Of a stretch of DNA of 64,000 nt, positions 21,432 through 62,078 are shown in pieces; the stretch's first letter is position 1, and the number at the start of each line of letters is the position of its first letter. Source of the stretch: Vicinamibacterales bacterium. Lineage in GTDB: Bacteria; Acidobacteriota; Vicinamibacteria; Vicinamibacterales; UBA2999. A program made the position numbers and the translations under genes. Under the pieces are notes generated by a model, which saw nothing but the letters and a program-made list of their open reading frames with translations, ran no database searches and was not told the DNA's origin. The DNA is taken from NCBI GenBank assembly GCA_035495795.1, contig DATJFF010000009.1, positions 9,394 through 73,393 of the forward strand, in the 5' to 3' direction.

Positions 21432-21572
21432 GACGGGGGTTCAAAGCACGGGGGTTCAAAGCACGACGGGTTCAAAGCACGACGGGTTCAAAGCACGACG
21501 GGTTCAAAGGTACGTACGTTCAAGGCACGAAGTTCGAAGGCGCGAGCGTTCAAGGCCACGAAGGTTCTGCGT
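21432..21572 (+). repeat. Tandem array of about 9 units of a 15-16 bp repeat (GGGTTCAAAGCACGAC), sense to the GH63-like gene
   Basis: GTTCAA cores at 21439, 21454, 21470, 21486, 21502, 21518, 21532 (GTTCGA), 21548 and 21564 (GTTCTG). The array starts 1 nt after the TAA stop, and units decay with distance. Confidence 0.9.
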
Positions 21573-21642
21573 CGGGGGTGAGCTCAAAAGAGCGCTCTTC
21601 AGAATAGGGCAGCGCGAAGTGTCTCCGCGGCCGTCGCGCAGC

Positions 21643-21770
21643 TCTCAACGAACCCTCGCGTTGAACCTCCGTGCTTTTGAACTCCCGTGATTTGAACCTC
21701 CGTGATTTGAACCTCCGTGATTTGAACCCCTGTGATTTGAACCACCGTGATTTGAACCTACGTGAAAAGA
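21643..21770 (-). repeat. Tandem array of about 7 units (minus-strand GGTTCAAATCACGGA), sense to the FAD-oxidase gene and reverse complement of the 21432-21572 array
   Basis: The plus strand reads CCGTGATTTGAACCT repeated with a 15-bp period. The last unit overlaps the stop and last codons of gene 21758-23335. Confidence 0.9.
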
Positions 21771-23357: not shown

Positions 23358-23420
23358 GACGAACGCCCGTACGTTGAAGCCTCGGGCCTTGAAGCCGTGG
23401 GCTTTGAACCTCGATGAGAA
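23358..23420 (-). repeat. Degenerate third array of the GGTTCAA(A/G)G family, sense to the histidine kinase gene
   Basis: The minus strand reads ...GAGGTTCAAAGCCCACGGCTTCAAGGCCCGAGGCTTCAACGTACGGGCGTTCGTCCGAAC..., beginning about 8 nt after the kinase stop (23429). Confidence 0.7.
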
Positions 23421-28057: not shown

Positions 28058-28068
28058 GGGGGGGGGGG
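28058..28068 (-). repeat. Homopolymer tract, G11 on the plus strand (C11 on the coding strand of the CheB-CheR gene)
   Basis: Read directly: ccgg ccggggggggggg ttgttcat. It lies between an SD-preceded ATG (28076-28074) and the long ORF. Confidence 0.95.
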
Positions 28069-34007: not shown

Positions 34008-35369
34008 ATGGCAGACATCAAGGCTGCGGCTGATGCGCTCCGCGGCAATTTTTCCGGTGACGTGCTCGTCGCGGCCGACCCGGCGTTCGACGCCTGCCGC
34101 CGTGTCCACAACGGCATGATCGACCGCCGGCCGGCCCTTATCGCCCGCTGCCGCGGCGTAGGTGACGTGCAAGCGGCGGTCCGGCTCGCCCGCGACCACC
34201 AGCTGGAGATCGCGGTCCGCGGCGGCGGTCACAACGTCGCCGGCAACGCCGTGTGCGAGGGCGGTCTGATGATCGACCTGGCGGGAATGCGCGGAGTGCA
34301 TGTCGATCCCGCGGCGCGCCGCGCTCGCGCCCAGGGCGGGGCCACCTGGGCCGACTACAACCGCGAGACGCAGCTGTTCGGCCTGGCCAGCACCGGGGGT
34401 GTCGTCTCGACAACCGGCGTCGCGGGGCTGACGCTCGGAGGCGGGCTCGGGCACCTGATGGGCAAGCACGGGATGGCTGTCGACTGCCTTCGTGGGGCCA
34501 CCATGGTCACGGCGTCGGGCGACGTGGTCCGCGCCGGCGCCGACGAGCACCCGGATCTCTTCTGGGCGATTCGGGGTGGCGGCGGCAACTTCGGCGTGGC
34601 GGCGTGGCTCGACTTCGAAGTGGCGCCGGTCGGACCGGTCGTGACCGGCGGACTGGTCGCCCATCCATTCGCCGCGGCCCGCGACGTGCTTCGTTTCTAC
34701 CGCGATCTCACGGCCAACCTGCCCGACGAGCTCATCGCGTTTGGCGGGCTCCTGCACGGCCCGGACGGCACCAGGTTGGCGGCCATCGCGGTCTGCCACT
34801 GCGGCGACCTGGAGAGCGGCCGCGCCGCGACCGATCCCGTCAAGCGCTTCGGGTCGCCGGCGATGGATGCGATCGGGCCAATGCCGTACTCGGTCGTCAA
34901 CACACTATTCGATCCCGGGTTCCCGCGCGGCGCGCTCAATTACTGGAAGTCCAACTTCCTCGCGGCCCTGACCGACCAGGCCATCGACGGCATCATCGCC
35001 CAGTTCGAGTCCTGTCCGTCGCCAATGAGCGCGCTGCTCCTCGAGCACTTCCACGGCGCAGCCACGCGCGTCGCGCCGACCGCCACCGCGTTTCCGCACC
35101 GCAGCGTCGGCTACAACTGCCTGATCATCAGCGAGTGGATGGATCCGGCCGCGACCGATGTCAACGTGAAGTGGGCGCGCGACACGTACACGGCGATGTC
35201 GCCGCACTTTGCCAGCGGGCGGTATGCCAACTACCTCAACGCCGATGAAGTCGGGCAGGCCGATGCCGTGTCCGCGGCCTTCGGCCCGAACGCGGCGCGC
35301 CTGCGCGAGGTGAAGCGCAAGTACGATCCGGACAACGTGTTTCACTTGAACCAGAACATCCGGCCGTGA
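34008..35369 (+). CDS. FAD-binding oxidoreductase with BBE (berberine-bridge-like) C-terminal domain
   Basis: The ORF track starts at 33915. ATG 34008 is preceded by AGGAG. 453 aa. FAD_binding_4-type region (IAVRGGGHNVAG...). C-terminal YANYLNAD...LREVKRKYDPDNVFHLNQNIRP. Confidence 0.88.
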   Translation: MADIKAAADALRGNFSGDVLVAADPAFDACRRVHNGMIDRRPALIARCRGVGDVQAAVRLARDHQLEIAVRGGGHNVAGNAVCEGGLMIDLAGMRGVHVDPAARRARAQGGATWADYNRETQLFGLASTGGVVSTTGVAGLTLGGGLGHLMGKHGMAVDCLRGATMVTASGDVVRAGADEHPDLFWAIRGGGGNFGVAAWLDFEVAPVGPVVTGGLVAHPFAAARDVLRFYRDLTANLPDELIAFGGLLHGPDGTRLAAIAVCHCGDLESGRAATDPVKRFGSPAMDAIGPMPYSVVNTLFDPGFPRGALNYWKSNFLAALTDQAIDGIIAQFESCPSPMSALLLEHFHGAATRVAPTATAFPHRSVGYNCLIISEWMDPAATDVNVKWARDTYTAMSPHFASGRYANYLNADEVGQADAVSAAFGPNAARLREVKRKYDPDNVFHLNQNIRP

Positions 35370-38300
35370 TCCGGCGAGATCGAACCATGTCGATGCAGAA
35401 GATCGGAAACGGCCGGAGTGCGCTCGGCCGGACGCTACTCGGGTTGGTTGTCATTGCTGCCTGCGGTGCCCTGCTCCGGGGCCAGGCGCAGGGGCGCGAG
35501 GTCCGGCTGGCCATCCGCGAGGGCACCTCGATGGCCGCCGCAGTGTCGCCGGACGGCAAGACCATCGTGCTCGATCTGCTCGGCGCCCTCTGGACGACGA
35601 GCGGGGACGGCGGCCCGGCGCGGCGAATCCTCGAGGACGGGTACGACGCGCATCTGCCGGCGTGGTCGCCGGACGGACGGCGGCTCGCGTTCCAGGCCTA
35701 CCTCCGCGACACGTGGCACATCTGGGTGATGAACCCTGACGGCAGCGGGCTGCAGGAGGTGACCACCGGTCCGTTCGACGATCGGGAGCCGTACTGGTCG
35801 CCGGACGGCACCCGCCTGGCGTTCTCCTCCGATCGCAGCGGCAACTACGACATCTGGACGTTGACGCTCGCCTCCGGCGAAGTGAAGCGCCTCACCAACA
35901 GCGGCGCCAACGACAGCATGCCGGCATGGTCGCCGGACGGCCGCGAGATCGCGTTCGTCTCCGATCGCCAGGAGCGGGGCATCTACGCCCGCACCGTGGA
36001 CTCGGACGCCGAGCGGCTGCTCGTCCGCGACGCGACCACTGTCTGGTCGCCGATGTGGACCCCTGACGGCAAGGCGGTGGCCTACGTGTCGGTCAGCGGC
36101 GCGACCAGCAAGCTGGTGATGGGCGGCACGACGATCAGCGACTCGGGAGAGGATGTGTTCCCGTTCCGGCCGACATGGGTCGGCGCGGACATGGTCTATA
36201 CCGCCGACGGCGTGATCAAACGCCGGCCGCAGAGCGGCGGTGCCGCTCGGCCGGTACCGTTTGCGGCCGACGTCGCATTCACTCGCGCGGCGTTCACGCC
36301 GAAGGCGCCGGTCTTCGCGCCGGACGGCCCGCAGAAGGTCCGCGGCCTGATGCATCCGGTCGTTTCACCGGATGGCGCGCGGGTGGCATTTGCCGCGCTC
36401 GGCGATCTCTGGGTGCTGTCCACCTCCGGCGGCGAGGCGACGCCCGAGCGCTTGACCAATGACGTCTTCGTCGAGATGCACCCGATGTGGTCGCCCGACG
36501 GCAACCTGCTCGCCTATTCGTCGGACCGCGGCGGTGAGATGGCCGTATGGGTGCGCGACATGCGGACCGGCCAGGATCGGAAGATCATCGGCGGTGGCGG
36601 CACCGCGTCGTTCTCGCCGGACGGAGGGCGCCTGGCGTACCTCGACTCCGCTTCGCAGCTCCGCGTCGTGGACGTCAAGACCCTCGAAGGACGAAAGGTG
36701 CACGAGCGGCTGATGGAGCCGGGCCGACCGAGCTGGTCGCCGGACGGGCGCGCGGTGGTGATGTCGGCGCTCCACCCGTACTCGACGCGCTTTCGAGAGG
36801 GCACCAACGAAGTGCTGTGGGTGCAGGTCGAGCCGAACCCGTCGGCGACCGGGCGGGACGCGTTCGCGCCGGACCGCTGGTTCGATCCGCTGCCGCACAA
36901 GTCGATCGGGATGCGCGAGAACCTCGGTCCGGTCTGGTCGCCGGATGGGACGCAAATGGCCGCGATCATCGACGGCTATCTCGCCACGTTCCCGGTCGCG
37001 CGCGATGGCACGCCGGCCGGCCCGCCCCGGCGCGTCTCGTCCGACATGGCGAGCTCGCCGTCATGGGCCGGCGACTCACGCCGCGTGCTCTACCAGGCGC
37101 TCGATCGGTTCCGGCTCGTCGATCTTGCCGACGGCAGCGTCCGCGACATCGTCCCGCGCATGACGTGGGAGGCGCGAAAGACAACCGGCGCCGTGACGGT
37201 GCACGCCGGCCGCCTGTTCGACGGGCGCGGCACCGAGACGCGCAGCGGCGTGGACATCGTCATCGATGGAAACCGGATCCGGCAGGTGGAGCCGCACCGC
37301 GACGATCTGCACCGCGGCACCGTGGTCGATGCGCAATCCGGAACGGTGGTGCCGGGGATTATCGAAAGCCACACCCACCTCTCGAAGGAGTACGGCCAGG
37401 TTCTCGGGCGGATCTGGCTGTCGTTCGGCATCACGACGGTGCGCAACCCGGCGACCAATCCGTTCGAAGCCAACGAGGAGCGGGAGTCGCTCGCCTCCGG
37501 CGTCAGGATCGGTCCGCGGGTCGTCACCACCGGCGAGCCGCTCGATGGCACGCGCATCTACTACCCGGGCGGCGTGGCGCTCGACGGCGGCGCGATGGTG
37601 GACAACTACATGAGCCGGGCCCAGGCCCTCGGCTTCGACTTCGTCAAGACCTACGTGCGCCTGCCCGACCTGCTCCAGAAGCGGATCATCGCCGCCGCCC
37701 ATCAGGCCGGGATGCCGGTCACCTCGCACGAGATTTATCCGGCGGTGGCCTATGGCGCCGACGGCGTCGAGCACATTCGTGGCACCAGCCGGCGCGGCTT
37801 CACGCCGAAGAACAGCGAGACCCGTCACACCTACCACGATGTGATCGATCTGCTCGCGGCAAGCGGCATGACGCTGACGCCGACGATCGGCATCCAGGGC
37901 GGGCACCAGCTGCTGACGCTCAAGGACGGCTCGTGGCTGGACGACGCGCGGATCAAGACGCTGTTTCCGGCGACGGCATCCGAGCCCTCGCGCGCGCTGC
38001 GTGCGAAGCCGTCGACGCCGGCCGACATCGCCGCGCGGGAAGCGCTGGTCGCGCCGCAGGAGCGGCTGGTCAGCGCGCTGCACAAGGCGGGCGGCCGGAT
38101 CATCGCCGGGACCGACTCGCCGATCAATCCGTACGGGTTGTCGCTGCTGCTCGAGATCGAGCACTACGTCCGCGGCGGGCTGACGCCGGCCGAGGCGCTG
38201 CTCACGGTGACCGCGGTCCCGGCGCAGGCGATGGGCCTCGGCGCGGAGCTCGGCACGATCGAGCCGGGCAAGCTCGCGGACCTCGTCGTCGTGGACGGGA

Positions 38301-38395
38301 ACCCGCTGGAGAACATCGCCGACATCCGCAAGACCCGGACGGTCGTGAAGGACGGCGTCGTGTATCAGCTCGACGCGTTGCTGAAGCGGCCTTAG
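35366..38395 (+). CDS. PD40/TolB-type beta-propeller fused to a metal-dependent amidohydrolase domain
   Basis: About 1000 aa. The listed start GTG 35366 overlaps the upstream stop (GTGA). ATG 35387 is an alternative. Signal peptide. Many PD40-like repeats (AWSPDGRRLAF, YWSPDGTRLAFSS, AWSPDGREIAFVS...). C-terminal amidohydrolase with PGIIESHTHL. Confidence 0.88.
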   Translation: MIRRDRTMSMQKIGNGRSALGRTLLGLVVIAACGALLRGQAQGREVRLAIREGTSMAAAVSPDGKTIVLDLLGALWTTSGDGGPARRILEDGYDAHLPAWSPDGRRLAFQAYLRDTWHIWVMNPDGSGLQEVTTGPFDDREPYWSPDGTRLAFSSDRSGNYDIWTLTLASGEVKRLTNSGANDSMPAWSPDGREIAFVSDRQERGIYARTVDSDAERLLVRDATTVWSPMWTPDGKAVAYVSVSGATSKLVMGGTTISDSGEDVFPFRPTWVGADMVYTADGVIKRRPQSGGAARPVPFAADVAFTRAAFTPKAPVFAPDGPQKVRGLMHPVVSPDGARVAFAALGDLWVLSTSGGEATPERLTNDVFVEMHPMWSPDGNLLAYSSDRGGEMAVWVRDMRTGQDRKIIGGGGTASFSPDGGRLAYLDSASQLRVVDVKTLEGRKVHERLMEPGRPSWSPDGRAVVMSALHPYSTRFREGTNEVLWVQVEPNPSATGRDAFAPDRWFDPLPHKSIGMRENLGPVWSPDGTQMAAIIDGYLATFPVARDGTPAGPPRRVSSDMASSPSWAGDSRRVLYQALDRFRLVDLADGSVRDIVPRMTWEARKTTGAVTVHAGRLFDGRGTETRSGVDIVIDGNRIRQVEPHRDDLHRGTVVDAQSGTVVPGIIESHTHLSKEYGQVLGRIWLSFGITTVRNPATNPFEANEERESLASGVRIGPRVVTTGEPLDGTRIYYPGGVALDGGAMVDNYMSRAQALGFDFVKTYVRLPDLLQKRIIAAAHQAGMPVTSHEIYPAVAYGADGVEHIRGTSRRGFTPKNSETRHTYHDVIDLLAASGMTLTPTIGIQGGHQLLTLKDGSWLDDARIKTLFPATASEPSRALRAKPSTPADIAAREALVAPQERLVSALHKAGGRIIAGTDSPINPYGLSLLLEIEHYVRGGLTPAEALLTVTAVPAQAMGLGAELGTIEPGKLADLVVVDGNPLENIADIRKTRTVVKDGVVYQLDALLKRP

Positions 38396-38679
38396 GCTTC
38401 GCTGGAGGGCCGTTTCCCGGGCCTCGCGGCTTCCGCCGCTCGGCAGGCGCCCGCTTCGCGGGCGTAGGCTGCGCTTCGCGCATCGGGCGCGGCTTCGCCG
38501 CGTTACACGCCTCGCGGAGTGCGCCGCTCGGTAGGCGCCCGCTTCGCGGGCGTAGGCTGCGCTTCGCGCATCGGGCGCGGCTTTGCCGCGTTACACGCCT
38601 CGCGGAGTGCGCCGCTCGGCAGGCGCCTGCTTCGCGGGCGTAGGCTGCGCTTCGCGCATCGGGCGCGGCTTCGCCGCGT
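38396..38679 (+). repeat. 88-bp tandem repeat, about 3.2 copies, built from GCTTCGC/GCGAAGC mini-palindromes (hairpin module of composite element, copy 1)
   Basis: GCCGCTCGG anchors at 38435, 38523 and 38611 give a period of exactly 88 bp. Each unit contains CGCCCGCTTCGCGGGCG, GCGCTTCGCGC and CGCGGCTTCGCCGCG. The array begins right after the TAG at 38393-38395. Confidence 0.92.
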
Positions 38680-38806
38680 AGGGATTGGTGATTGGAAATT
38701 GAGGATTGTCGAGGCGCCAGGAGCGGCAATCCCGAGGGCCGCGAGCCTCTCCCGATCGACGCAACGTCCTCCCGAAGCAGCGCAAGCGTCCTCCCGGCGC
38801 AGACGC
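38680..38806 (+). repeat. GATTGG module and phased CTCCCG module of composite element, copy 1
   Basis: GGGATTGGTGATTGGAAATTGAGGATTG, then CTCCCG boxes at 38749, 38769 and 38791 (20- and 22-bp spacing). The module abuts the stop of the convergent gene at 38810. Confidence 0.8.
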
Positions 38807-38809
38807 CGC

Positions 38810-40306
38810 TCACGGTACCGTCAACACGATTTCGGGGGAAACACCGCTGGTCGCGCAGCTTCCCGCCGCGGCGACACGCAGGAAGTAGAAACCCGGCGGT
38901 ACGCCTGCGAGGGGGAAGGAGATCCGTGGCTGCGCGCCGACATTTCCATTGAAAGCGTTGCTCAGGCCGGTCGCGGTTCCTGCCTGGAGCACGTACGACG
39001 CCGCGCCGAAGGAGCGGCTCCACGAGATCGTGAGCACGCCGTTGATCTTCGTGAACGTGAGATCGGCCGGCACCGCCGGTGCGGTGCATCCGACGGAGAA
39101 CGACACCTCGTTGGAAGCGGCTCCGATACCGCACGCGTTCACGCCGCGAATCCGGGTTACGTAGTTCCCGCCCGGCGCCGCGGCCGTCAACTGCATTCGC
39201 CCGCCGACGTTCTGGTTGAACAGGTTGGCAAGTCCGCTCGCGCTGCCCGCTTCGACGATGTAGGAGGTGGCGCCGGCCGTGCCGTCCCAGTCGAGCGTGG
39301 CGCTGAGACCGATCGAGCGTACGGTGTGGGCATTCGGCGCTGCCGGAGCCGCCGTGCAGCCAGGATTGCCCACCGCGAAGGTTCGCTCGATTGAAACCGG
39401 GCCGATTGCGGCGCCCTGGCGGCTTCGCAGGCGCACGTAGTAGATGCCAGCAGGCACCGGCGATTGCAGCGCAGTCGTGTTGCCGATGTCGGCATTGAAG
39501 ATGTTCGTCGCACCCGGGGTCGAGCCGGCCTCGAGCACGTAGGACGTCGCGTCGACGGACGCGTCCCACGTAACAGCGGCCGACAGGCCGGTCGTGACGA
39601 TCTGGAGGTTGGTCGGCGGCAGCGGTTTGCGGAGCACGAGCCGCACGTGGCCGGATGCCGCGGCGGCCCCGGCCTGATCCACGTCGCGATCAGAGGATTC
39701 GAGCTCGTAGTTGAACTCGTAGGTGCCCGGTGGCAGCACGCCGCGCCGGGTGCCGAGCTGGTTGAAGGATCCGTACACGCCATCGTTCGACAGGTTGACG
39801 TAGAGCCAGCGCGCCAACCCGAAGGCGGTCTCGTCCTCGAGATACGCCGTCGTGAAAGGCGAGAGGAACTGGCGGAGGAAGGTCCGCTGGTGATAGGCGT
39901 CGCCGGCATCGGTGCTCGAACCGAACAGGTGCCCGCTCAGCTCGTAGACGTACGGTTCATCGAGCGTGATCTGAATGAAGCCTTCCGCGAGGTTGCCGTT
40001 CGACCCGACGCTGTAACTCTGCTCGGTCTGTATGTCGAACACCGCGGTGGTGCCGGTCAGGCTGATCTCGTAGGTGGCGCTGGTTGTCGCCGTCGCCGCG
40101 GTGCCGATCTCGGTATCGGTAATGCTGTCGCCGAACGTACCCGGGCCGAATACCGGCACGATGTCGTGCGAATCGACGACGCCGAAGTGATTGTCGGCGC
40201 GAACCCGGATGAGCGACGTCGGAGCGATGACCGGCGGCCCCGCTTCCACCGCGGATGGCAGGCAAGCCAGGAACGCACCGAACGCGAGCACGCGAATCCG
40301 CTTCAT
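38810..40306 (-). CDS. Exported protein with unknown N-terminal domain and three FN3-like repeats
   Basis: 498 aa. Signal peptide AFLACLPSAVEA. Three ~85-aa repeats each contain ...SYVLEAGS/T..G..N.F... and ...YYVRLR / YVTRIRG / YFLRVAA.... Confidence 0.8.
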   Translation of the reverse strand: MKRIRVLAFGAFLACLPSAVEAGPPVIAPTSLIRVRADNHFGVVDSHDIVPVFGPGTFGDSITDTEIGTAATATTSATYEISLTGTTAVFDIQTEQSYSVGSNGNLAEGFIQITLDEPYVYELSGHLFGSSTDAGDAYHQRTFLRQFLSPFTTAYLEDETAFGLARWLYVNLSNDGVYGSFNQLGTRRGVLPPGTYEFNYELESSDRDVDQAGAAAASGHVRLVLRKPLPPTNLQIVTTGLSAAVTWDASVDATSYVLEAGSTPGATNIFNADIGNTTALQSPVPAGIYYVRLRSRQGAAIGPVSIERTFAVGNPGCTAAPAAPNAHTVRSIGLSATLDWDGTAGATSYIVEAGSASGLANLFNQNVGGRMQLTAAAPGGNYVTRIRGVNACGIGAASNEVSFSVGCTAPAVPADLTFTKINGVLTISWSRSFGAASYVLQAGTATGLSNAFNGNVGAQPRISFPLAGVPPGFYFLRVAAAGSCATSGVSPEIVLTVP

Positions 40307-40345
40307 CGACAGTCCTCCGTATTCAACGACCGGGACGGCATGCTA

Positions 40346-41407
40346 TCACCGGTTCCGGTGGCGGCTGGCAAACACAGCCAGGCTCGTCGCCACCGCGCGC
40401 CCGCCGGGCGTGTTATCGGACGTCGTGTTCACGAGTTCGGCATCTCCGGTTGCGGGATTCTGCCAGGCCATGGTGGTCGAGCCGCCGCCGTCCAGGTTGA
40501 GCGCATCCCAGACGCCGTACTCACGCACCAGCAACGCCGCGATCTCACCGAGCGTCATCCCCTGGCTGCCGCCGCGCACGTCCACGGTGAAGAAGGTCAC
40601 GATGCGCCGGTCCTTCGAGAGCCCGATCGCCGTCCGAGCCGTCGCGACGTCGTTCCACGACTTGTCGTTCGAGTAGTTCGACGGTCCCCCGGCGGTCAGC
40701 GTGCCGCGTGGGTGCTCCGCGTCGCGGTAGGCAGGCATCGTCACCGCACCGCTGGTCGCGATCTGCGACGATCCTGCGACGGTGTTCCAGAGCCGCACGC
40801 GCTCGCGAACGTGAATCGCATCGGGTTTCAACGGGTCGCGGTGCACGAGCCTGGCCCGCTGACTGCGATCGAAGTTGATCGCCGGCGCGTCGGCCACCAG
40901 CGCGAAGCTCTGCTCGGGTGACTCGAAGGCCGAGAAGACGCGCCCCTCCGATGCGCCGAGGCCGATGATCCACGCTTCGCTGTCGGGCGACGGAAACGGC
41001 AGGAAGAAGTGCGCGTTGATCGCGAGCTGCGCACCGACTGCACGCAGAAACTCCAGCGTCTGCTGCCGCGGCACCTCGCGGCTGCCGCCCGGCGCCGAGA
41101 CCATGAAGCGGATTCCCGGTGCCTTGGTATCGATCTGCGCGATGTGCATGCGAACCGGGCGAGGTCTCTGCTCCGATCGATCGACGAGCGTGATCCCGAC
41201 ATAGGGCGAAGGAGCGCTGGACTGGGCTCGCGACGGAATCTGTCCCGCGAGCAGCAGGGCGAGCACCGCCGCAATCGAGAGGACTCGGCAACGTCGAGAA
41301 CCGGCAATCACGCGCCGCAGAATACGCCACCGCGCGTTCGTGCTCCTGCCGGGGCTCGGCGCCACGGATACCATCGCCACACCCATTCGGCGGCGATTTG
41401 CGCTCAC
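40346..41407 (-). CDS. Phosphodiester glycosidase-family (DUF2233/NAGPA-like) exported protein
   Basis: 353 aa. Signal region ...IAAVLALLLAGQIPSRAQS. C-terminal hallmark ALNLDGGGSTTMAW. Confidence 0.75.
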   Translation of the reverse strand: MSANRRRMGVAMVSVAPSPGRSTNARWRILRRVIAGSRRCRVLSIAAVLALLLAGQIPSRAQSSAPSPYVGITLVDRSEQRPRPVRMHIAQIDTKAPGIRFMVSAPGGSREVPRQQTLEFLRAVGAQLAINAHFFLPFPSPDSEAWIIGLGASEGRVFSAFESPEQSFALVADAPAINFDRSQRARLVHRDPLKPDAIHVRERVRLWNTVAGSSQIATSGAVTMPAYRDAEHPRGTLTAGGPSNYSNDKSWNDVATARTAIGLSKDRRIVTFFTVDVRGGSQGMTLGEIAALLVREYGVWDALNLDGGGSTTMAWQNPATGDAELVNTTSDNTPGGRAVATSLAVFASRHRNR

Positions 41408-41432
41408 GCCCGGCGAGCGGTTCGCTTAGCCG

Positions 41433-42389
41433 TCACCCCCGTGACTCCAGCGGGAACAGTTTCTCGAAGTTGCCGCTGAAGATCTGCGTCTGCTGCGCGT
41501 CGGACACGCCCAGATCGACCAGCGCGGCGCGCTGCACGTTGTAGATGGCGCGGTGCCAGCCGCGCGGGAAGAACGAGGAGTCGCTGCCGAAGAGCAGCCG
41601 ATCGACGCCGGCGACGGCCAGCGCGGTCTCGAAGACCTGTTCGAGCGTCAACCCCGGCTGGTATTTCATCCACGCATTCGAGCTCGAGGTGTCGAAGCAG
41701 ACGTTCGGGCACTGGTCGGCCAGGATCAGCGCCTCTCGGAACAAACCGGCACCGAAGTGCGGAACCACGATCGGCATCCGCGCATGGCGCATCGCGATCG
41801 TCCCGACGTCGAGCGGGTTGCCGAAGCGGATGTCGAACGGACTTGGCAGCCCGAGCTTCTGCCGCGCGCCGACCGACAAGACGCCGCAATGCACGAAGAG
41901 GACGGCGCGGTGGTGAGCGGCGACGATCTCGGCGAGGTGCAACACGCGCGGGTCGTGCAGCGAATAGCCCTGCATCGCCGGGAACAGGCAGACGCCGCGG
42001 AGCCCGCGTTCGAGTGCCGACCGGACCCGGTTCTCGGCATCTTCGTTCGTCGGATCGACCATGAAATAGCCGATGAAGCGCGATGGATGCCGCTCCCGAG
42101 CCGTCGCCACCGAGGCTTCGTCGCCGGGCACGCTGGCGATGAGGGCGACGCGCGACACGCCCTGGGCGTCGAGCTCGGCGATCCACCGATCGGCGAGCGC
42201 CTCGGCGGACAAGGGGTCGTCCCACCCCAGGTGCCGGATCGCATCAGCCGTCGCCACGTGGCGCTGCCCCGCCAGGGTGGCGAAGAAGGCCGGCGAGAAG
42301 AAGTGGACGTGGGCGTCGCAGATCACCGCGCCATTGTAGGCGCTCGCTGCGTCCGCGTCGCGCCAGGCCGGGAGGGCGGCTCCCTGCAT
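41433..42389 (-). CDS. Amidohydrolase-2 family metal-dependent hydrolase
   Basis: 318 aa from ATG 42389 (GAGG 6 nt upstream). An alternative GTG at 42326 would give MICDAHVHFF..., with the HxH motif at the extreme N-terminus, as is usual for this family. Later motifs ...VLFVHCG... and ...FGSDSSFFP. Confidence 0.82.
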   Translation of the reverse strand: MQGAALPAWRDADAASAYNGAVICDAHVHFFSPAFFATLAGQRHVATADAIRHLGWDDPLSAEALADRWIAELDAQGVSRVALIASVPGDEASVATARERHPSRFIGYFMVDPTNEDAENRVRSALERGLRGVCLFPAMQGYSLHDPRVLHLAEIVAAHHRAVLFVHCGVLSVGARQKLGLPSPFDIRFGNPLDVGTIAMRHARMPIVVPHFGAGLFREALILADQCPNVCFDTSSSNAWMKYQPGLTLEQVFETALAVAGVDRLLFGSDSSFFPRGWHRAIYNVQRAALVDLGVSDAQQTQIFSGNFEKLFPLESRG

Positions 42390-42394
42390 TCTTG

Positions 42395-42598
42395 CCTCGC
42401 CTATCTCGGGAAGAGGCTGGCGCCCGATCGGGAGGGTCTTACGGCTTTCGGGAGCGTCCCGCCCTCAACCGTTCCGATCCATCACTCTTAGATCATCAGA
42501 TCCCTGCGCGGCTGCCTGTCCGCCGTAGCCTTTGGCGAAGGCGGAAAGCCGCGCCTGACGCGCGTAGCGCGGCCTGCGGTCGCGAAGCGACCGCCTAC
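42395..42598 (-). repeat. Composite element, copy 2 (inverted): CGGGAG boxes, weak GATTGG-like part, hairpin module
   Basis: Plus-strand CGGGAA/CGGGAG at 42407, 42429 and 42449. Segment 42502-42600 is the reverse complement of 44191-44289 with about 92% identity by hand alignment. Confidence 0.85.
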
Positions 42599-42741
42599 CG
42601 AGCGCGAAGCGCGACGCCCGCGAAGCGAGGCCTATCGAGCGCGCAGCGTGAGGCCCGCGAAGCGAGGCCTATCGAGCGCGTAGCGCGACGCCCGCGAAGC
42701 GAGGCCTATCGGGCGCGCAGCGCCCGCCCGGCAAAGCGGCC
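42599..42741 (-). repeat. 37-bp tandem repeat, 3 full copies plus a fourth diverged copy inside the MATE gene 3' end
   Basis: Units CGAGCGCG(A/C/T)AGCG(C/T)GA(C/G)GCCCGCGAAGCGAGGCCTAT at 42599, 42636 and 42673. The next unit, CGGGCGCGCAGCGCCCGCCCGGCAAAGCGGCC, encodes the last 11 codons (GRFAGRALRAR) of the MATE gene. Confidence 0.9.
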
Positions 42742-44100
42742 CCACACCGTCGTGAGCACGACGCCGGCGACGATGAGCCCGAGCGACAGTCCCCACCACA
42801 GTCCGCGCGCGCCCCAGCCGGCCGAAAAACACAGCCAGTAGCCCACCGGGAGTCCGACCAGCCAATGCGCGGCGAGATTCGTGACCATCGGGGTACGCGT
42901 GTCCCCGAGGCCGCGGAGGGTTCCCGTGACCACGCCTTGCAGCCCGTCGAAGAGCTGGAACACCGCCGCGATGAAGAGCAGCGACGCGCCGAGCTCGAGC
43001 ACCGCGGCGTCCCTGGTGAAGAGCCCGATCAGCGTCCGCGGGATCGCGATGAACGCCGCGCCAGAACAGAGCATGAACACGACGCCCATGGCGATGACCG
43101 TCCATCCCGCGGCCGCGGCGCCGCGCGGGTTCCTGGCACCGATCGCATTGCCGACCCGAACCGCCCCCGCGGAGGCAAGCCCCAGCGGGATCATGAACGC
43201 GACCGCCGCGATGTTGAGCGCGATCTGGTGCGAAGCGGTGGCCACCGGCTCGAGCTTTCCCGCCAGTGCTGTTGCGACCGCGAACACGCCGACTTCCGCA
43301 GTGACGGTGGCCGCTGCCGGCAGACCCAGCTCGACGAGTCGCCGTATCGACGGATCCGATCGATCGGCGGAGCTGAGGGCCATGACACTCCCGTGTCCCT
43401 CCCGTAATTCCCTCCCGACGTCCTGCGCCAAAGGCGCAGAAGCTCCCGACCCCGCGTCGTCCGACGTCCACCACACTGCGATGCCGAGAATCGCGCTCAT
43501 GTAGATCCGGGCCGCGAGCGTCGCCAGCGCCGACCCCGGGACACCCAGCGCCGGAATGCCAAGCCGGCCGTAGATGAACACCCAGTTGAAGAACGCGTTG
43601 ATCGCGTTGGCGCTCACCAGGGCGAACATCACCGGCGCCACGTGGTGCGTGCTCTGGAGGTAGCGTCGAAGCGCCGCGTAGAGCAGCAGGAAGGGAGTAC
43701 TCAGGACCAGGATGGCGAAGTAGCCGCGGAGCAGGACCAGCGTGTCGTGGTGGAAGCCGAGCGCCGGCACGGCCGCCCAGACCGCAGCCAGGACCAGCAG
43801 GAGAGGGATGGCGCTGATCAGGGCGAGCTGGATGCCGCGCCGGAGCCATGACCGGCAGAGCCGCAGGTCGCCGGCGCCATACGCTTGCGACACGAGCGTG
43901 TCGAGGCCGAGCAGCAGGCCCATGCCGAAGATGACGAAGCCGAGGTGCAGCGAATTGGCGACGCCGGACGCGGCAATGGCCGCCGGGCCGAGCGGGCCCA
44001 CCATGATGGTGTCCACGATGCCCATGCCCATCCAGCCGAGCTCCGCCAGTATCACGGGGCCCGCCAGCCGCAGCGTTGGTTTGAGCTCTCGGCGCAGCAC
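42706..44100 (-). CDS. MATE-family efflux transporter
   Basis: 464 aa with 12 predicted TM helices. Family-typical N-terminus ...RLAGPVILAELGWMGMGIVDTIMVGPLG. Confidence 0.9.
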   Translation of the reverse strand: MLRRELKPTLRLAGPVILAELGWMGMGIVDTIMVGPLGPAAIAASGVANSLHLGFVIFGMGLLLGLDTLVSQAYGAGDLRLCRSWLRRGIQLALISAIPLLLVLAAVWAAVPALGFHHDTLVLLRGYFAILVLSTPFLLLYAALRRYLQSTHHVAPVMFALVSANAINAFFNWVFIYGRLGIPALGVPGSALATLAARIYMSAILGIAVWWTSDDAGSGASAPLAQDVGRELREGHGSVMALSSADRSDPSIRRLVELGLPAAATVTAEVGVFAVATALAGKLEPVATASHQIALNIAAVAFMIPLGLASAGAVRVGNAIGARNPRGAAAAGWTVIAMGVVFMLCSGAAFIAIPRTLIGLFTRDAAVLELGASLLFIAAVFQLFDGLQGVVTGTLRGLGDTRTPMVTNLAAHWLVGLPVGYWLCFSAGWGARGLWWGLSLGLIVAGVVLTTVWGRFAGRALRAR

Positions 44101-44111
44101 TGAACTGTCAA

Positions 44112-44446
44112 TGGTACTCGCGCTTCGCGGGCCTCGCCGCTACGCCGCTCGGGAGGCGCCCGCTTTCGCGGGCCTCGCGGCTACGCGGCTCGGGAGGCGC
44201 CCGCTTCGCGGGCGTAGGCCGCGCTCCGCGCGTCAGGCGCGGCTTTCCGCCTTCGCCAAAGGCTACGGCGGACAGGCAGCCGCGTAGGGGCGGACGATTG
44301 CGGATTCGCGATTGGGATTTGGCGATTGGGATCGGGCGAGTGAGGGACTGAGGGACGGACACTCCCGCTCGGCGAAGCCGCTCCCGATCAGGCGCCAGCC
44401 GCCTCCCGAGAGACGCGAGACAAGAATGTAGCGAGCGCCGCTCCCG
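44112..44446 (+). repeat. Composite element, copy 3: hairpin module, GATTGG module, phased CTCCCG boxes
   Basis: Two ~42-bp units (CGCTTCGCGGGCCTCGC(C/G)GCTACGC(C/G)GCTCGGGAGGCGCC), then the 88-bp-type unit. GATTGCGGATTCGCGATTGGGATTTGGCGATTGGGATCGGG follows. CTCCCG boxes at 44362, 44381, 44403 and 44441. Confidence 0.85.
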
Positions 44447-44490
44447 GACAAGGTGTTGGGGGAATACCGGATTGGTGATTCACTATCCCT

Positions 44491-45039
44491 ATGTGCGGTG
44501 ATGTCGCGGCGGGAGGCAAGGCGCGGCTGACGTGTACCGTCAACGGGGAGCCGGTCGAGGTCCTCGTCGACGGCTACAAGACCTTGCTCGAGATGCTGCG
44601 CGAGGACCTGCAGCTCACCGGCACCAAGCACGGGTGTGAGCTGGGCGAGTGCGGTGCCTGTGCGGTGCTCGTCGACGGCGAGCCGGTGCTGTCGTGCCTG
44701 ACGCTGGCCGTGGAGTGCGATACGCGCCAGGTCACCACCGTCGAGGGGCTTGCCAGCGGCGGCGCACTGCATCCGCTGCAGGAGACGTTTGCCGATCTCG
44801 GGGCCGCGCAGTGCGGCTATTGCACGCCAGGGATCCTGGTCACGGCCAAGGCGCTCCTCGATCGCAATTCGAACCCGACCCGCGCGGAGATCAAGGAGGC
44901 GCTTGCCGGCAACCTGTGCCGATGCACGGGATACCTGCAGATTGTTGAAGCGGTGGAAAAGGCGAGTGCGATGAGGGGCGCTACGACTACGGGTGCGACA
45001 GGTGTGTCGGGTGCGACGGGTGCGGAGGAACTGGCGTGA
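44491..45039 (+). CDS. (2Fe-2S)-binding small subunit, CoxS/HcrC-like
   Basis: 182 aa. Motifs CELGECGACAV and CGYCTPG...CRCTGY. The C-terminal tail GATTTGATGVSGATGAEE is encoded by a 9-bp repeat (44989-45024). Confidence 0.9.
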   Translation: MCGDVAAGGKARLTCTVNGEPVEVLVDGYKTLLEMLREDLQLTGTKHGCELGECGACAVLVDGEPVLSCLTLAVECDTRQVTTVEGLASGGALHPLQETFADLGAAQCGYCTPGILVTAKALLDRNSNPTRAEIKEALAGNLCRCTGYLQIVEAVEKASAMRGATTTGATGVSGATGAEELA

Positions 45040-47504: not shown

Positions 47505-48571
47505 TGCGACTGCCGACGTTCCGGTATCGCGCGCCGCGCACCCTGGCGGAAGCGTCGGCGTGGCTGGCCGAATCTCCCGACGACACGATGCTCGTCGCGG
47601 GCGGGACCGACGTGCTGCCGAACATGAAGCGCCGGCAGCAAGTGCCGGGAACGCTGATCGCGCTTCGCTCGCTGGGCGAGCTCAGCGCGATCGCAACGGG
47701 TGAGGCTGGCGCCAGTTCGGGACGACACGCCTCGCTTCGCTCGGCGGCAGGGGGGACAGTCATTGGCGCAGGCGTGACTCTTGCCACCCTGGTGCGTGAC
47801 GAACACATTCGAACGACGATCCCCGGGCTGTGTCAGGCGGCCATCCAGGTGGCGACGCCGCACTTGCGCAACATGGGGACGCTTGGCGGCAATCTCTGCC
47901 TCGACACGCGCTGCACGTATTACGACCAGACTTACGAGTGGCGGAAAGCAATCGACTTCTGCCTCAAGAAGGACGGGACAATCTGCTGGGTGGCGACGTC
48001 GAGCCCGCGATGCCTGGCGGTGTCGTCCACCGATACCGCGCCGATGCTGCAGGCGCTCGGCGCACGTGTGCGGCTCGTCTCGGCGCAGGGCGCGCGCGAA
48101 TTGTCAGTGGCGGATCTCTACCAGAACGATGGCATGCACTACCTCGCTCGCCGTCGCGACGAGATCCTGGCCGACGTGACCGTGCCGGATCAGACCGGGT
48201 GGCGCAGCACCTACTGGAAGTTGCGCCGGCGCGGCTCGTTCGACTTCCCGGTTGCCGCCGTGGCCGCGGCGGCGCGCCTGGACGCGGGCGGACTGGTCGA
48301 AGAGGTTCGCCTCGTCGCGGGCGCCGTGGCTTCGCGCCCGCTCGGCGCGCCGAAGGCCGAGGCGCTCCTGCTCGGCCAGTCCCTGACCGACGAGCGCATT
48401 GCCGCTGCCGCGCACGCGGTGTACGACATCGCCAAGCCGATGGACAACACCGACTTCGAGCTCGTCTGGCGCAAGCGGATGATCACCACCCTCGCCACCT
48501 GCGCGTTGCGGGAGATCCGCGGTGACGACATGCGTGCGGCGAGACAACGTCTCGCGCGCCAGCTTGTCTAA
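47501..48571 (+). CDS. FAD-binding medium subunit, CoxM/HcrB-like, with a Cys-rich insertion
   Basis: The ORF track starts at 47375. ATG 47501 overlaps the large-subunit TGA (ATGA). 356 aa. FAD motif LVAGGTDVLPNMK and GTLGGNL. About 40 aa are inserted, with Cys codons at 47897, 47912, 47960, 47984 and 48011. Confidence 0.88.
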   Translation: MMRLPTFRYRAPRTLAEASAWLAESPDDTMLVAGGTDVLPNMKRRQQVPGTLIALRSLGELSAIATGEAGASSGRHASLRSAAGGTVIGAGVTLATLVRDEHIRTTIPGLCQAAIQVATPHLRNMGTLGGNLCLDTRCTYYDQTYEWRKAIDFCLKKDGTICWVATSSPRCLAVSSTDTAPMLQALGARVRLVSAQGARELSVADLYQNDGMHYLARRRDEILADVTVPDQTGWRSTYWKLRRRGSFDFPVAAVAAAARLDAGGLVEEVRLVAGAVASRPLGAPKAEALLLGQSLTDERIAAAAHAVYDIAKPMDNTDFELVWRKRMITTLATCALREIRGDDMRAARQRLARQLV

Positions 48572-48718
48572 AGGAAACCACGAAGGCACGAAGGACACGA
48601 AGGAAACCACGAAGCTATTCTTGGGAAGCACGCGGGATCCAAGTCACGACACACGCGTGACACCCCCAAGAATCTTCGTGTCTTCCTTCGCGCTCTTCGT
48701 GCCTTCGTGGTTTCTTTT
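48570..48718. repeat. 149-bp composite palindrome whose arms are tandem CACGAAGG-type decamers (probable bidirectional terminator)
   Basis: The left arm 48570-48625 and the reverse complement of the right arm 48665-48718 align at about 85% identity. The 39-nt centre contains a sub-palindrome GTCACG...CGTGAC (48643-48661). The arms touch the stop codons of both convergent genes. Confidence 0.85.
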
Positions 48719-50729: not shown

Positions 50730-50760
50730 GGCGTCATCCTACACCCCGGCGGTGGTGGGG

Positions 50761-50829
50761 GAAGGCAAACACGGAAGGCAAAAGGCAAAAGGCAAAAGGC
50801 AGAAGGCAGAAGGCAGAAGGCAGAAGGCA
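50761..50829 (-). repeat. Heptamer array, 9 units of (A/G)AAGGCA on the plus strand (TGCCTT(C/T) on the minus strand)
   Basis: GAAGGCA aacacg GAAGGCA AAAGGCA AAAGGCA AAAGGCA GAAGGCA GAAGGCA GAAGGCA GAAGGCA, read directly. Confidence 0.92.
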
Positions 50830-50943
50830 ACGCCCCGGTTGCTGACCACACGGGGCGTCGATCGAACCAGAGCGAAAAGAACCTGCGGAAGACAGCGACT
50901 GCGGGCCGGAAGGACCGCGTTCGGGACTGCTCAGTCCCGCCCG

Positions 50944-51022
50944 TGGTCCCCTCCCGATCAGCGAAGTCCCTCCCGGCCAGCGAGGCCCCTCCCGATTTGC
51001 GAAGCCAACCTCCCGGCTGGCG
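50944..51022 (+). repeat. Phased CTCCCG-box module (fourth occurrence)
   Basis: CTCCCG at 50951, 50970, 50989 and 51010 (spacings 19, 19, 21), each followed by a ..GCGAAG-like segment. It abuts the stop of gene 51027-52190. Confidence 0.8.
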
Positions 51023-51026
51023 CGCG

Positions 51027-57470: not shown

Positions 57471-57505
57471 TTTCTGCCTTCCGCCTTCTGCCTTTTGCCT
57501 TGCCT
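57471..57505 (+). repeat. Heptamer array TGCCTT(C/T), about 5 units, sense to the BVMO-esterase gene
   Basis: tttcTGCCTTCCGCCTTCTGCCTTTTGCCTTGCCtcc starts 8 nt after the stop. It is the reverse complement of the array at 50761-50829. Confidence 0.85.
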
Positions 57506-62030: not shown

Positions 62031-62078
62031 CTTCGAGAACCCCGAGAACCCCGAGAACTTCGAGAACCCCGAGAACCC
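62031..62078 (+). repeat. 9-bp tandem repeat C(T/C)(T/C)CGAGAA, 5 units
   Basis: CTTCGAGAA CCCCGAGAA CCCCGAGAA CTTCGAGAA CCCCGAGAA ccc, starting 10 nt after the qor stop. Confidence 0.92.

Follow-up and report, generated by a model that had tools for sequence, protein, structure and literature searches.

A low-copy mosaic of hairpin, heptamer and box repeats in gene spacers of an uncultured soil acidobacterium

Mycobacterial MIRUs and intergenic VNTRs are tandem spacer units of 40–100 nt in high-GC genomes; their number varies between strains and their ends overlap the stop codons of flanking genes. GTAG REPs are built from stems of 5–13 bp and loops of 2–20 nt, admit G-T pairs, cluster through tandem reiteration and are mostly found downstream of genes (PMC3733652). 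Enterobacterial BIMEs combine palindromic units with short motifs (PMC2817692), and in Streptococcus pneumoniae BOX elements are built as A-B(n)-C, with a number of boxB modules that differs between strains (PMC3049150). The heptamer d(GCGAAGC) is known from studies of oligonucleotide structure, phage origins and primase or N4 polymerase sites (PMC13037366). Acidobacteria are abundant in soil and their non-coding DNA is almost unstudied; in the literature we found no description of extragenic repeats in Vicinamibacterales.

In an uncultured soil acidobacterium of this order, three spacers between ordinary metabolic genes carry one non-coding mosaic of short repeats; the affiliation is taken from homologues of MatE and of OmpA, whose sources are named as Vicinamibacterales or Acidobacteriota. 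Its copies c1, c2 and c3 (1205 bp together) and a partial relative, c4, lie in the 64-kb stretch of DNA that we analysed, hereafter the window. Within each copy the order is fixed, with a hairpin array first, a G-rich heptamer stretch next and phased CTCCCG boxes last. The same order is found twice at L122, a locus from another genome (300-kb contig). Units of the first module, about 20 nt long and arranged head-to-tail, consist of a (G/A)TAGGC-type head and a palindrome of 5–8 bp with a 3-nt TTC loop; the second module is G-rich and C-poor with a repeat period of about 7 nt, and the third has three or four boxes at a spacing of 19–22 nt.

Copy c1 (38396–38806, plus strand) follows a PD40-amidohydrolase gene (35366–38395; an ORF with Pfam PD40 and Amidohydro_1 domains), whose TAG stop (38393–38395, plus strand) doubles as the TAG of a TAGGC head motif (TAGGCTTCGC...). 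A partial lead-in unit (38396–38420) lies outside the array delimited by Tandem Repeats Finder (TRF), which begins 25 nt past the stop codon. This array, the hairpin module proper (38421–38679; TRF, repeat search, palindrome census and covariance model), has a period of 88 nt, 2.9 copies, 95% matches and no indels. Repeat search places three units in register at 38421, 38509 and 38597, with 90–100% identity, and covariance-model matches fall at 38434–38493, 38522–38581 and 38610–38669. Every 88-nt unit is made of four sub-units of ∼22 nt, one mini-palindrome apiece: GTAGGC-GCCCGC-TTC-GCGGGC, GTAGGC-TGCGC-TTC-GCGCA, CGCGGC-TTC-GCCGCG and GCGG-AGTGCG-CCGC. The middle module, recognised by sequence (38681–38724), holds GATTGG-type heptamers (GGGATTGG TGATTGG AAATTGA GGATTG), with the GATTGG part at 38681–38708, a GC content of 55% and a G-C skew of +0.58. 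In the box module (38725–38806), defined by a box census, CTCCCG occurs at 38749, 38769 and 38791, and the module ends at the stop codon of a convergent fn3-domain gene (38810–40306, minus strand).

Most of this had been anticipated by the original prediction, made from sequence alone. The 88-bp tandem unit, the GATTGG module and the three boxes 20 and 22 nt apart are all present, its count of 3.2 units is slightly generous, and the three TTC palindromes are exact (CGCCCGC-TTC-GCGGGCG, TGCGC-TTC-GCGCA, CGCGGC-TTC-GCCGCG). The GCGAAGC DNA mini-hairpin that it invoked is a genuine item of the literature (PMC13037366). The element is non-coding, as had been proposed: none of its unit lengths (88, 37 and 41 nt) is a multiple of 3, and GC is flat over codon positions (0.72–0.74) as against 0.68/0.52/0.90 in the neighbouring gene.

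Copy c2 (42345–42745) lies on the minus strand. Its hairpin module (42503–42745; TRF, direct and inverted repeat search, covariance model) contains 4.2 copies of a 37-nt unit (42581–42738), each ATAGGC-CTCGC-TTC-GCGGG plus GCGC-TNC-GCGC, and an h1–h2 core at 42548–42607; the loop of hairpin h3 carries a 32-nt insertion. The first ATAGGC head supplies, with its TAG, the stop codon of MatE (42706–42708). The middle module (42461–42502, by sequence; GC 50%, skew +0.52 on the forward strand of the element) consists of GAT-type short repeats, rich in G and poor in C. The box module (42345–42460, by box census) has boxes at 42449–42454, 42429–42434, 42407–42412 (TTCCCG) and 42369–42374, and encloses the ATG (42389) with which the longest Amidohydro_2 ORF begins. 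Copy c3 (44101–44446, plus strand) has a hairpin module (44101–44289; TRF, inverted repeat search, covariance model) with 2.3 units of 41 nt (44121–44213), an h1–h2 core at 44184–44243 and the same 32-nt insertion in the h3 loop. It continues with GATTGG/GATTCG repeats and two TGAGGGAC units (44290–44361; TRF and sequence) and with CTCCCG at 44362, 44381, 44403 and 44441 (box module 44362–44446, by box census); the CoxS start codon, at 44491, is beyond it. Positions 44188–44289 of c3 and 42502–42603 of c2 form an inverted repeat of 92% identity, and the homology of the two copies extends through the fourth box. Recurrence in the same order was thus rightly foreseen, while the span given earlier for the inverted copy, 42395–42600, was too short.

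The partial relative c4 (50775–51015, plus strand; TRF, sequence and box census) is without the GCTTCGC hairpin array. Here (AAGGCAR)x8 replaces GATTGG and is followed by a hairpin (50831–50858) and four CTCCCG boxes (50951–51015). It is located between PQQ dehydrogenase and EF-hand genes, both on the minus strand; in L129, a syntenic sister genome (4.6-Mb contig), a GSDH gene is found at this position. Three sites lie in convergent or divergent spacers; c2 reads in the same direction as its genes, c4 in the opposite one. We considered gene orientation as a clue to the functional strand and rejected it, since the geometry of convergent and divergent spacers forces such an arrangement. Many further short-repeat arrays are seen at gene ends in the window.

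Ten perfect TTC/GAA palindromes with stems of at least 5 bp occur in the window and nine of them are inside c1–c3, while the same census on block shuffles counted 1.8 on average and never more than 4. Of the 41 GCTTCGC/GCGAAGC heptamers of the window, 17 fall in the 1205 bp of the copies. Pairs of CTCCCG 12–17 nt apart number eight in the window versus 0.27 expected, and phased runs of at least three boxes are restricted to the window and its relatives (0 of 118 GC-rich control loci), the conserved core of a box being just 6–8 nt. In nine distinct, related h1–h2 cores 99.1% of cells pair, compared with just 13–60% in slid controls; three pairs are changed on both sides (CG/GC/AU at one, CG/UA at two), and none of 500 shuffles matches either the observed covariation score or the percentage paired. 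Compensatory substitutions keep the palindromes complementary.

Folded as a whole, the element does not exceed dinucleotide shuffles in stability (z = –0.7 and –0.5), values that are uninformative at its GC content of 75%. Rfam gave no match at gathering score in the whole window and none at E ≤ 1 over 38200–44700. U-tract terminators are absent from c1–c3, and the four such sites in 38000–45000 lie elsewhere, in a number equal to the shuffle expectation; canonical intrinsic terminators do exist in the clade (L122, L132, L146). The three copies are not intrinsic terminators. CRISPR, retron and riboswitch readings were rejected (no Rfam match, no associated genes), and so was a replication origin or iteron (no GC-skew switch).

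The mosaic is real, and comparison with strains of the window organism (loci L120, L121 and L124) shows that it changes fast. Flanks are 97–99.9% identical, yet unit number differs: 2.9 units of the 88-nt array in the window versus 1.9 in L120, 2.3 units of the 41-nt array versus one in L121 and L124, and 0, 2, 4.2 and 6.2 units of the 37-nt array among strains. The window and L121 each have the 32-nt insertion in the h3 loop in c2 as well as in c3, and on L124, a single contig, both of these copies lack it; the loop of c1 is of the short form. The inverted copies flanking MatE share derived changes, which means that they evolve in concert. Exact protein matches to MatE, Amidohydro_2 and CoxS come only from contigs of 1–5 kb of the same organism. 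In L129, whose MatE protein is 93% identical, the flanking genes are intact and syntenic, and the three spacers measure 74, 33 and 211 nt as against 414, 316 and 390 nt in the window. Each L129 site retains about one hairpin unit and one or two boxes; the size difference fits expansion here or reduction in L129, in either direction. It should be noted that not all modules change equally fast. The box module of c3 is 96.2% identical to that of L124 with no indels, and the middle module of c3 is 27 nt shorter there. Identity to L124 is 96–97% for the box and hairpin modules of c3 and 97.7% for the CoxS gene, and 80% at third codon positions of MatE.

The distribution of the element appears narrow. 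The original prediction spoke of a dispersed element, which is not supported: c1, c2 and c3 are all within 6 kb, and elsewhere the core was found only at the L122/L132 site. A covariance model of the hairpin core found no further match in the other 58 kb of the window, and its one match in ∼130 kb of DNA sampled from seven related genomes is L132, orthologous to the L122 site, so that in ∼196 kb of Vicinamibacterales DNA, representing parts of genomes, it detects just c1–c3, L122 and this orthologue. When JGI metagenomes were scanned with a 24-base core pattern, c1–c3 were recovered from strains of the window organism, together with L122 and a single chance match; the soil metagenomes that contain this organism yielded no site beyond these. 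A 19-base pattern proved too loose: a contig scan with it gave 118 single matches in unrelated GC-rich genomes. Each one that we inspected was due to chance, and most of the acidobacterial ones lay within coding sequence. Six-frame translation of c1 and of the c4 boxes has no match in the protein database at E ≤ 0.001, and the plasmid collection has no match to the element. The OmpA site shows the same dynamics as the window. At L132, one GTAGGC hairpin and a canonical terminator stand downstream of an OmpA-family gene; at L122, whose OmpA-family protein is 97% identical, the expanded composite is present twice. A repeated modular composite with conserved order, as originally predicted, is found in c1, c2, c3 and twice in L122. 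Modules also occur independently, which is part of what the original prediction had named as speaking against it: boxes without a hairpin array in c4 and at L144 (3′ of an OmpA-family gene, boxes only), GATTGG heptamers alone at L132:1357–1400 and a single hairpin alone at L132:10681–10699. The 11-mer CCGCCTTCGCC, shared by the h3 insertion and an L132 inverted repeat, was considered as a nested mobile hairpin and rejected, as it is also found in coding DNA.

How does this element relate to the described families? With MIRUs it shares tandem spacer units of strain-variable number, ends that overlap stop codons and a high-GC genome, whereas MIRUs as generally described have neither the mini-palindrome build nor the two modules that follow. 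The REP and BIME likeness noted in the original prediction is borne out, except that the units here are head-to-tail. Like GTAG REPs, the element has short extragenic palindromes (stems here span 5–8 bp and loops 3 nt), in some units an unpaired GTAG-type head that may have two extra bases, compensatory stem variants, G-T pairs and tandem clustering beside gene 3′ ends (PMC3733652). Unlike them, it is low-copy and local in the parts searched, strictly head-to-tail and degenerate in its head, its hairpins are joined to two unrelated repeat modules, and no RAYT is known for it. With enterobacterial BIMEs it has in common palindromic units and short motifs in a fixed order, an extragenic location and a unit number that varies by site (PMC2817692); the REPs of BIMEs, however, alternate in orientation and occur in hundreds per genome, while all units here are direct and only 3–4 sites were found. 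BOX is similarly a modular composite with a strain-variable internal tandem module, with modules missing or recombined and with predicted stem-loops if transcribed (PMC3049150). In contrast to our element, BOX is AT-rich, has terminal inverted repeats and more than 100 copies and is thought to be MITE-like; there is no sequence relationship between the two. Most units have the heptamer d(GCGAAGC) at their centre when read on the complementary strand, but stems of the element extend 5–8 bp beyond the 2-bp mini-hairpin, and the literature on the heptamer draws no link to chromosomal repeat arrays.

In our best reading the mosaic, local and low in copy number, is related to known bacterial mosaic repeats and is not a widespread mobile element. 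On balance we lean towards a lineage-specific low-copy mosaic intergenic repeat with REP-like GTAGGC-headed hairpins, growing by slippage and spreading by gene conversion. Very stable mini-hairpins (GCGAAGC on the complementary strand) would provoke replication slippage and unequal recombination, and arrays would expand and contract as a result; ectopic recombination or gene conversion between hairpin-bearing sites would then copy neighbouring modules from spacer to spacer. The element would be dispensable filler, because L129 keeps short spacers with its flanking genes intact. Contrary to this expectation, conservation of the c3 box and hairpin modules as high as that of CoxS gives a hint of constraint. 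If transcription of the upstream gene (PD40-amidohydrolase or MatE, and OmpA in the other genome) runs on into the hairpin array, the array would form a row of short stem-loops at the end of the transcript, and these, judged by analogy, would probably act like the 3′-end barriers of REPs and BIMEs rather than as intrinsic terminators. The boxes are given no specific role in this reading.

Other explanations deserve consideration. A genuine REP family, in which GTAGGC hairpins are RAYT substrates and clusters arise by transposase-mediated amplification, seems fairly unlikely to us. Seven hairpins, all in c1–c3, are directly preceded by GTAGG(C) (offset 0–1 nt, stem 5–7 bp, 3-nt loop), the stems covary, wobble pairs in them are all G-T on one strand, and the units cluster in tandem beside gene 3′ ends as GTAG REPs do (PMC3733652). 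Yet the apparent copy number is low (no new site in 196 kb, three loci per organism in the metagenome scan), and the head is degenerate, with GTAG, ATAG, GCAG, TCAG and GGAG all in use, the last four heading the other units. A loose search for TAGG plus hairpin showed no enrichment (10 observed, 14.7 expected from shuffles), and no Y1 transposase is encoded among the 18 window ORFs scanned with Pfam. Moreover, head-to-tail arrangement is under-represented in REP families, and GTAG REPs were not reported in Acidobacteria (PMC3733652). A MITE or other non-autonomous transposon inserted at three sites is extremely improbable, and this reading, along with the MITE logic of the original prediction, is largely refuted. 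Similar length and module order at the three sites and the far shorter spacers of the sister species would suit it, but individual copies lack terminal inverted repeats and target-site duplications, their edges are gene ends, sharp boundaries relative to the short L129 sites are missing, and those sites are not clean empty ones, retaining hairpin and box fragments in the same order. The plasmid collection offers no match either, and no transposase was found among the window ORFs scanned.

One functional reading holds that the CTCCCG boxes, about two helical turns apart, are a binding array of a regulator for the CoxSLM and Amidohydro_2-NAGPA-fn3 operons, the rest being spacer. Boxes of c2 and c3 do lie within ∼130 nt upstream of operon starts, with strict 19–22 nt phasing; the promoter-proximal fourth box is retained in L129 at both sites, and the c3 boxes are conserved in L124 (96% identity, no indels) next to a heptamer module that changes freely. 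Still, we regard it as unlikely: boxes of c1, c4 and L144 directly adjoin convergent or opposed genes at their 3′ ends, a place where one would not look for a promoter, the gap between the last box and a −10-like element ranges from 20 to 34 nt, only a 6–8 nt core is conserved, one or two boxes suffice in L129 and no regulator gene is adjacent. It is decidedly improbable, from sequence patterns, that the element is a Rho-dependent terminator or insulator, where the C-rich, almost G-free complement of the middle module (CAATCCTCAATTTCCAATCACCAATCCC) would be a rut-like site followed by pausing hairpins on opposite-strand transcripts. The G-C skew of the middle modules (+0.41 to +0.58) leaves the other strand poor in G, that strand is the sense strand past a stop codon in c1 (fn3 operon), c4, 57472–57501 and L131:16627–16691, and c1–c3 have no U-tract terminators. 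Against it, the sense strand of c2 is the G-rich one, the modules are merely 40–70 nt long, G-rich CGGGAGG boxes would precede the proposed rut site on that strand, and the reasoning stays at the level of sequence patterns and general rut properties. Very unlikely, finally, is a small RNA gene whose repeated CCUCCC (anti-Shine-Dalgarno-like) or GGGAGG motifs would bind ribosome-binding sites or an RNA-binding protein. C-rich/GGA motifs indeed repeat at ∼20-nt spacing and a canonical intrinsic terminator is present inside the L122 composite, although this terminator comes before the boxes; promoter- or terminator-like sites do not bracket the box modules of the window, Rfam has no match even at E ≤ 1, orientation is inconsistent and no conserved fold was established.

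A broader view, which we find quite unlikely, is that GTAGGC hairpins, G-rich heptamers and CTCCCG arrays form a shared vocabulary of functional spacer modules across Vicinamibacterales, reassorted between spacers as interchangeable parts and not mere junk repeats. They could, for instance, bind a protein with affinity for DNA or RNA, or they could load Rho and pause transcription and so insulate adjacent operons. We keep this view because of the unusual conservation of the box module beside CoxS, the reappearance of these modules at unrelated sites in different genomes and the many other short-repeat arrays at gene ends in the window.

As it stands, the finding extends the known range of bacterial mosaic repeats modestly and at a descriptive level. 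It shows that this clade possesses REP-like hairpin units, arranged head-to-tail and joined to two other repeat types, which turn over between strains. Such arrays break metagenome assemblies (L122 ends within a copy) and displace the start and stop codons that gene calling assigns: two genes terminate at the TAG of a TAGGC head, and the Amidohydro_2 ORF is lengthened by an ATG that lies within the element. They could also be used as strain markers. If the modules are functional, they would open a way to study transcription termination or the insulation of operons in this uncultured phylum.

The composite element is real, and the original prediction described it accurately: the 88-nt array, the palindromes centred on TTC, the GATTGG stretch and the CTCCCG boxes were all recovered by computation. 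In the first copy (c1), Tandem Repeats Finder places the 88-nt array at 38421-38679 (2.9 copies, 95% matches, zero indels), and a repeat search of the window finds three units of it in register, at 38421, 38509 and 38597. Each unit consists of four sub-units of ~22 nt, three of which are perfect palindromes (CGCCCGC-TTC-GCGGGCG, TGCGC-TTC-GCGCA and CGCGGC-TTC-GCCGCG). The GATTGG stretch (38681-38708) lies 3' of the array and is followed by three CTCCCG boxes at 38749, 38769 and 38791. The same module order returns at 44101-44446 on the forward strand (c3) and inverted at 42345-42745 (c2); both recurrences had been foreseen, with too short an extent for the inverted copy. The 64-kb window holds ten perfect TTC/GAA palindromes with stems of at least 5 bp (shuffle mean 1.8), nine of them inside c1-c3, and 17 of its 41 GCTTCGC/GCGAAGC heptamers are concentrated within the 1205 bp of these copies. 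Phased CTCCCG pairs number 8 against 0.27 expected, and three or more phased boxes in a row occur nowhere in ~0.9 Mb of GC-rich control loci. The predicted lack of coding capacity holds as well: none of the unit lengths (88, 37 and 41 nt) is divisible by three, and GC content is ~0.73 at each codon position, versus 0.68/0.52/0.90 for the neighbouring gene. Rfam returned zero family matches with either threshold (gathering score; E ≤ 1).

The hairpin module is built of ~20-nt units arranged head-to-tail, in which a head (GTAGGC; also ATAGGC, GCAGGC, TCAGGC and GGAGGC) directly precedes a palindrome of 5-8 bp that encloses a 3-nt loop; the super-units of 88 nt (c1), 37 nt (c2) and 41 nt (c3) each comprise two to four of these units. 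GC content is 50-61% in the middle module, where the G-C skew is close to +0.5. The box module shows a mild excess of C and strong conservation of (C)CTCCCG alone, the box flanks being weakly conserved. The best-conserved two-hairpin core is available in nine distinct versions, in which 99.1% of cells are paired; at three pairs both partners have changed (CG/GC/AU at one, CG/UA at two). None of 500 shuffles came up to this covariation or to this pairing, and sliding the partner columns lowered pairing to 13-60%. These observations argue that the palindromic character of the core is maintained, within a small and related sample of nine sequences, a property that holds equally for REP DNA hairpins and RNA hairpins. 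Wobble cells in the core are all G-T on the element's forward strand, just two independent events and not significant. Folding of the whole element showed no extra stability over dinucleotide shuffles (z = –0.7 and –0.5), and no U-tract terminators were found within the copies.

The most informative evidence is the evolutionary behaviour. Scanning JGI metagenomes with a 24-base core pattern yielded seven contigs: five represent the three c1-c3 loci in strains that share 89-99.9% identity with the window, another matched by chance in coding DNA, and the last (L122) is a true relative from another genome. Among strains the 88-nt array has 2.9 or 1.9 units, the 37-nt array 0, 2, 4.2 or 6.2, and the 41-nt array 2.3 or 1; strain L124 lacks 27 nt of the GATTGG stretch. 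Copies c2 and c3, on either side of the MatE gene, hold a 102-nt inverted repeat (92% complementary). They evolve in concert, since the third hairpin has a 32-nt loop insertion in both of them and in neither copy of L124; c1 has the short form. In the sister species L129 (a syntenic 4.6-Mb contig, MatE 93% identical) the spacers at the three sites are only 74, 33 and 211 nt long, each retaining roughly one hairpin unit and one or two boxes, in unchanged order. In L131, which is more distantly related (77%), there are none. With a covariance model of the core, a search of 196 kb (the window and eight Vicinamibacterales loci) returned the training copies, L132:10662-10709 (E = 4e–5) and, more weakly, the 37-nt and 41-nt units, and nothing else; in sample Ga0310810 the JGI scan recovered all three sites and no fourth. 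As far as can be seen from these searches, the hairpin family thus appears local and low-copy.

Like behaviour is apparent at a site not related to c1-c3, downstream of an OmpA-family lipoprotein gene. In L122 hairpin units are followed by AAGGCA repeats, a canonical intrinsic terminator and four boxes, after which the composite restarts and the contig stops within the second copy. L132 (OmpA 97% identical) has only one GTAGGC hairpin and a terminator, L144 (96%) lacks the hairpin and has an 11-bp inverted box pair (CGGGAGGGA/TCCCTCCCG) with two more boxes, and L134, L145 and L146 have ordinary terminators. The spacer following this highly conserved OmpA/Pal-like gene is hypervariable among these close relatives. 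Elsewhere in L132 (1273-1478), a near-perfect ~50-nt inverted repeat (GCCGATTGCCGATTGCCAAATCGGGCGATTCATCGGGCGAAGGCGGAATG...) between convergent genes carries in its loop three GTGATTGG and one GAGGATTG, a GATTGG heptamer stretch on its own that is much like the c1 middle module. From the differing states at the OmpA-family site and this lone GATTGG stretch, the modules prove separable, with constant order whenever they occur together.

All three copies occupy whole spacers between ordinary chromosomal genes, with no transposase found nearby: c1 between convergent PD40-amidohydrolase and fn3-domain genes, c2 from the MatE stop to the start of an Amidohydro_2-NAGPA-fn3 string (all genes on the minus strand), and c3 between MatE and CoxS, which diverge. 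The organism belongs to Vicinamibacterales, Acidobacteriota, judging by the source names of MatE and OmpA homologues. MatE (window 42345-44446) is flanked by inverted c2 and c3 with hairpins gene-side and boxes outside; single inverted boxes likewise flank MatE of L129, and no inversion of the gene was found among the strains seen. Both PD40-amidohydrolase (38393-38395) and MatE (42706-42708) take their stop codon from the TAG of a TAGGC repeat head, so that MatE differs in its C-terminal residues from strain to strain as the arrays change; MatE of L129 (L129:11296 region) also terminates in CAGTAGGCC. In the stretch 42324-42389, the ATG at 42389 that starts the longest Amidohydro_2 ORF falls within the element. 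Conservation with L119 and L129 does not set in before CCTACAATGGCGCGGTG, and residue 24 is the first of the Pfam domain; the GTG at 42326 is therefore the probable true start. The hexamer TACAAT lies 6 nt before this GTG, suggesting a leaderless arrangement. In CoxS a CACTAT stands 4 nt ahead of the ATG.

A partial relative, c4 (50775-51015), has four CTCCCG boxes and AAGGCAR heptamers in place of GATTGG, without GCTTCGC hairpins. Its spacer (50730-51026), between PQQ-dehydrogenase and EF-hand genes, corresponds to L129:1722-3535, where an additional GSDH (glucose/sorbosone dehydrogenase) gene stands with spacers of 65 and 378 nt; this repeat is located at a gene presence/absence breakpoint. 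The (AAGGCAR)x8 run at 50775-50830 is 97% complementary over 30 nt to (TTCTGCC)x4 at 57472-57501, 6.6 kb away; the latter presents its C/T-rich strand after a stop codon and before a bidirectional-looking hairpin (AGGTTGCTGG-TTTT-CCAGCAACCT), and in L122 the AAGGCA repeats are likewise ahead of a terminator.

About half of the stronger tandem arrays of the window lie in its small intergenic fraction. At 21433-21780, between convergent genes, ~8 copies of a 16-nt unit (GGGTTCAAAGCACGAC) and ~7 of a 15-nt unit (TTTGAACCTCCGTGA), ~90 nt apart and partly mutual reverse complements, form a long repeat-built inverted structure, with a trio of related units at 23373-23417. Inverted arrays of CACGAAGG and CCTTCGTG at 48569-48719 (66-nt arms, 77% complementary), between convergent CoxM-like and PQQ-dehydrogenase genes, are 89% conserved in L129 (5546-5696), in contrast to c1-c3, and may represent a repeat-based terminator. 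Two nonamer arrays lie 1.5 kb apart: CGAGAACCC x5 at 62034-62078, apparently intergenic and immediately upstream of TATACT and an ATG, and CCTCGAGAA x3.8 at 63522-63555. In L131 (16627-16691), (GGGATCA)x5 and then (AGGTTCTG)x4 separate two minus-strand genes, the sense strand being C-rich and G-poor. G-rich arrays of 7-8 nt repeats seem to be a feature of Vicinamibacterales spacers in general. An 11-G run at 28058-28068, in a spacer directly before CAT (a minus-strand ATG), may either be prone to slippage or reflect an artefact of sequencing or assembly.

The best-supported reading is a lineage-specific mosaic extragenic repeat, comparable with BIMEs and pneumococcal BOX elements. BOX elements have an A-B(n)-C architecture with a strain-variable number of boxB (PMC3049150), which the composite resembles in modular build and variable unit number, and its palindromic units resemble GTAG-tagged REPs in format (PMC3733652). 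The tests run do not place it in REP/BIME: neither high copy number, in the 196 kb and the JGI metagenomes searched, nor alternating orientation was found. Clean empty sites, terminal inverted repeats and target-site duplications were not found at the three sites, which largely refutes a MITE, and to read these local, low-copy sites as a dispersed mobile element overstates the case. A regulatory reading has a low probability; it stays alive because the box and hairpin modules of c3 are 96-97% identical to L124 with indel-free boxes, above CoxS third-codon positions (94%) and far above those of MatE (80%), and because the promoter-proximal box is retained in L129 at both sites. Such identity argues against pure junk. 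Rho loading on the G-poor complementary strand is less probable still, as is a small RNA.

For the mosaic extragenic repeat, sequence comparison shows that pairing is conserved, that units are gained and lost from strain to strain, that c2 and c3 evolve in concert, that the element is dispensable in the sister species and that its modules are separable. Slippage would be promoted by the stable hairpins, whose complementary strand carries GCGAAGC, the classic DNA mini-hairpin (PMC13037366); ectopic recombination seeded on hairpin units already present may account for spread between spacers; and a transcribed array could serve as a REP-like barrier at 3' ends. Our literature search on Acidobacteriota found no earlier descriptions of mosaic palindromic extragenic repeats. 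Such repeats are a known kind, and we rate the composite as adding a variant in a phylum previously without described examples.
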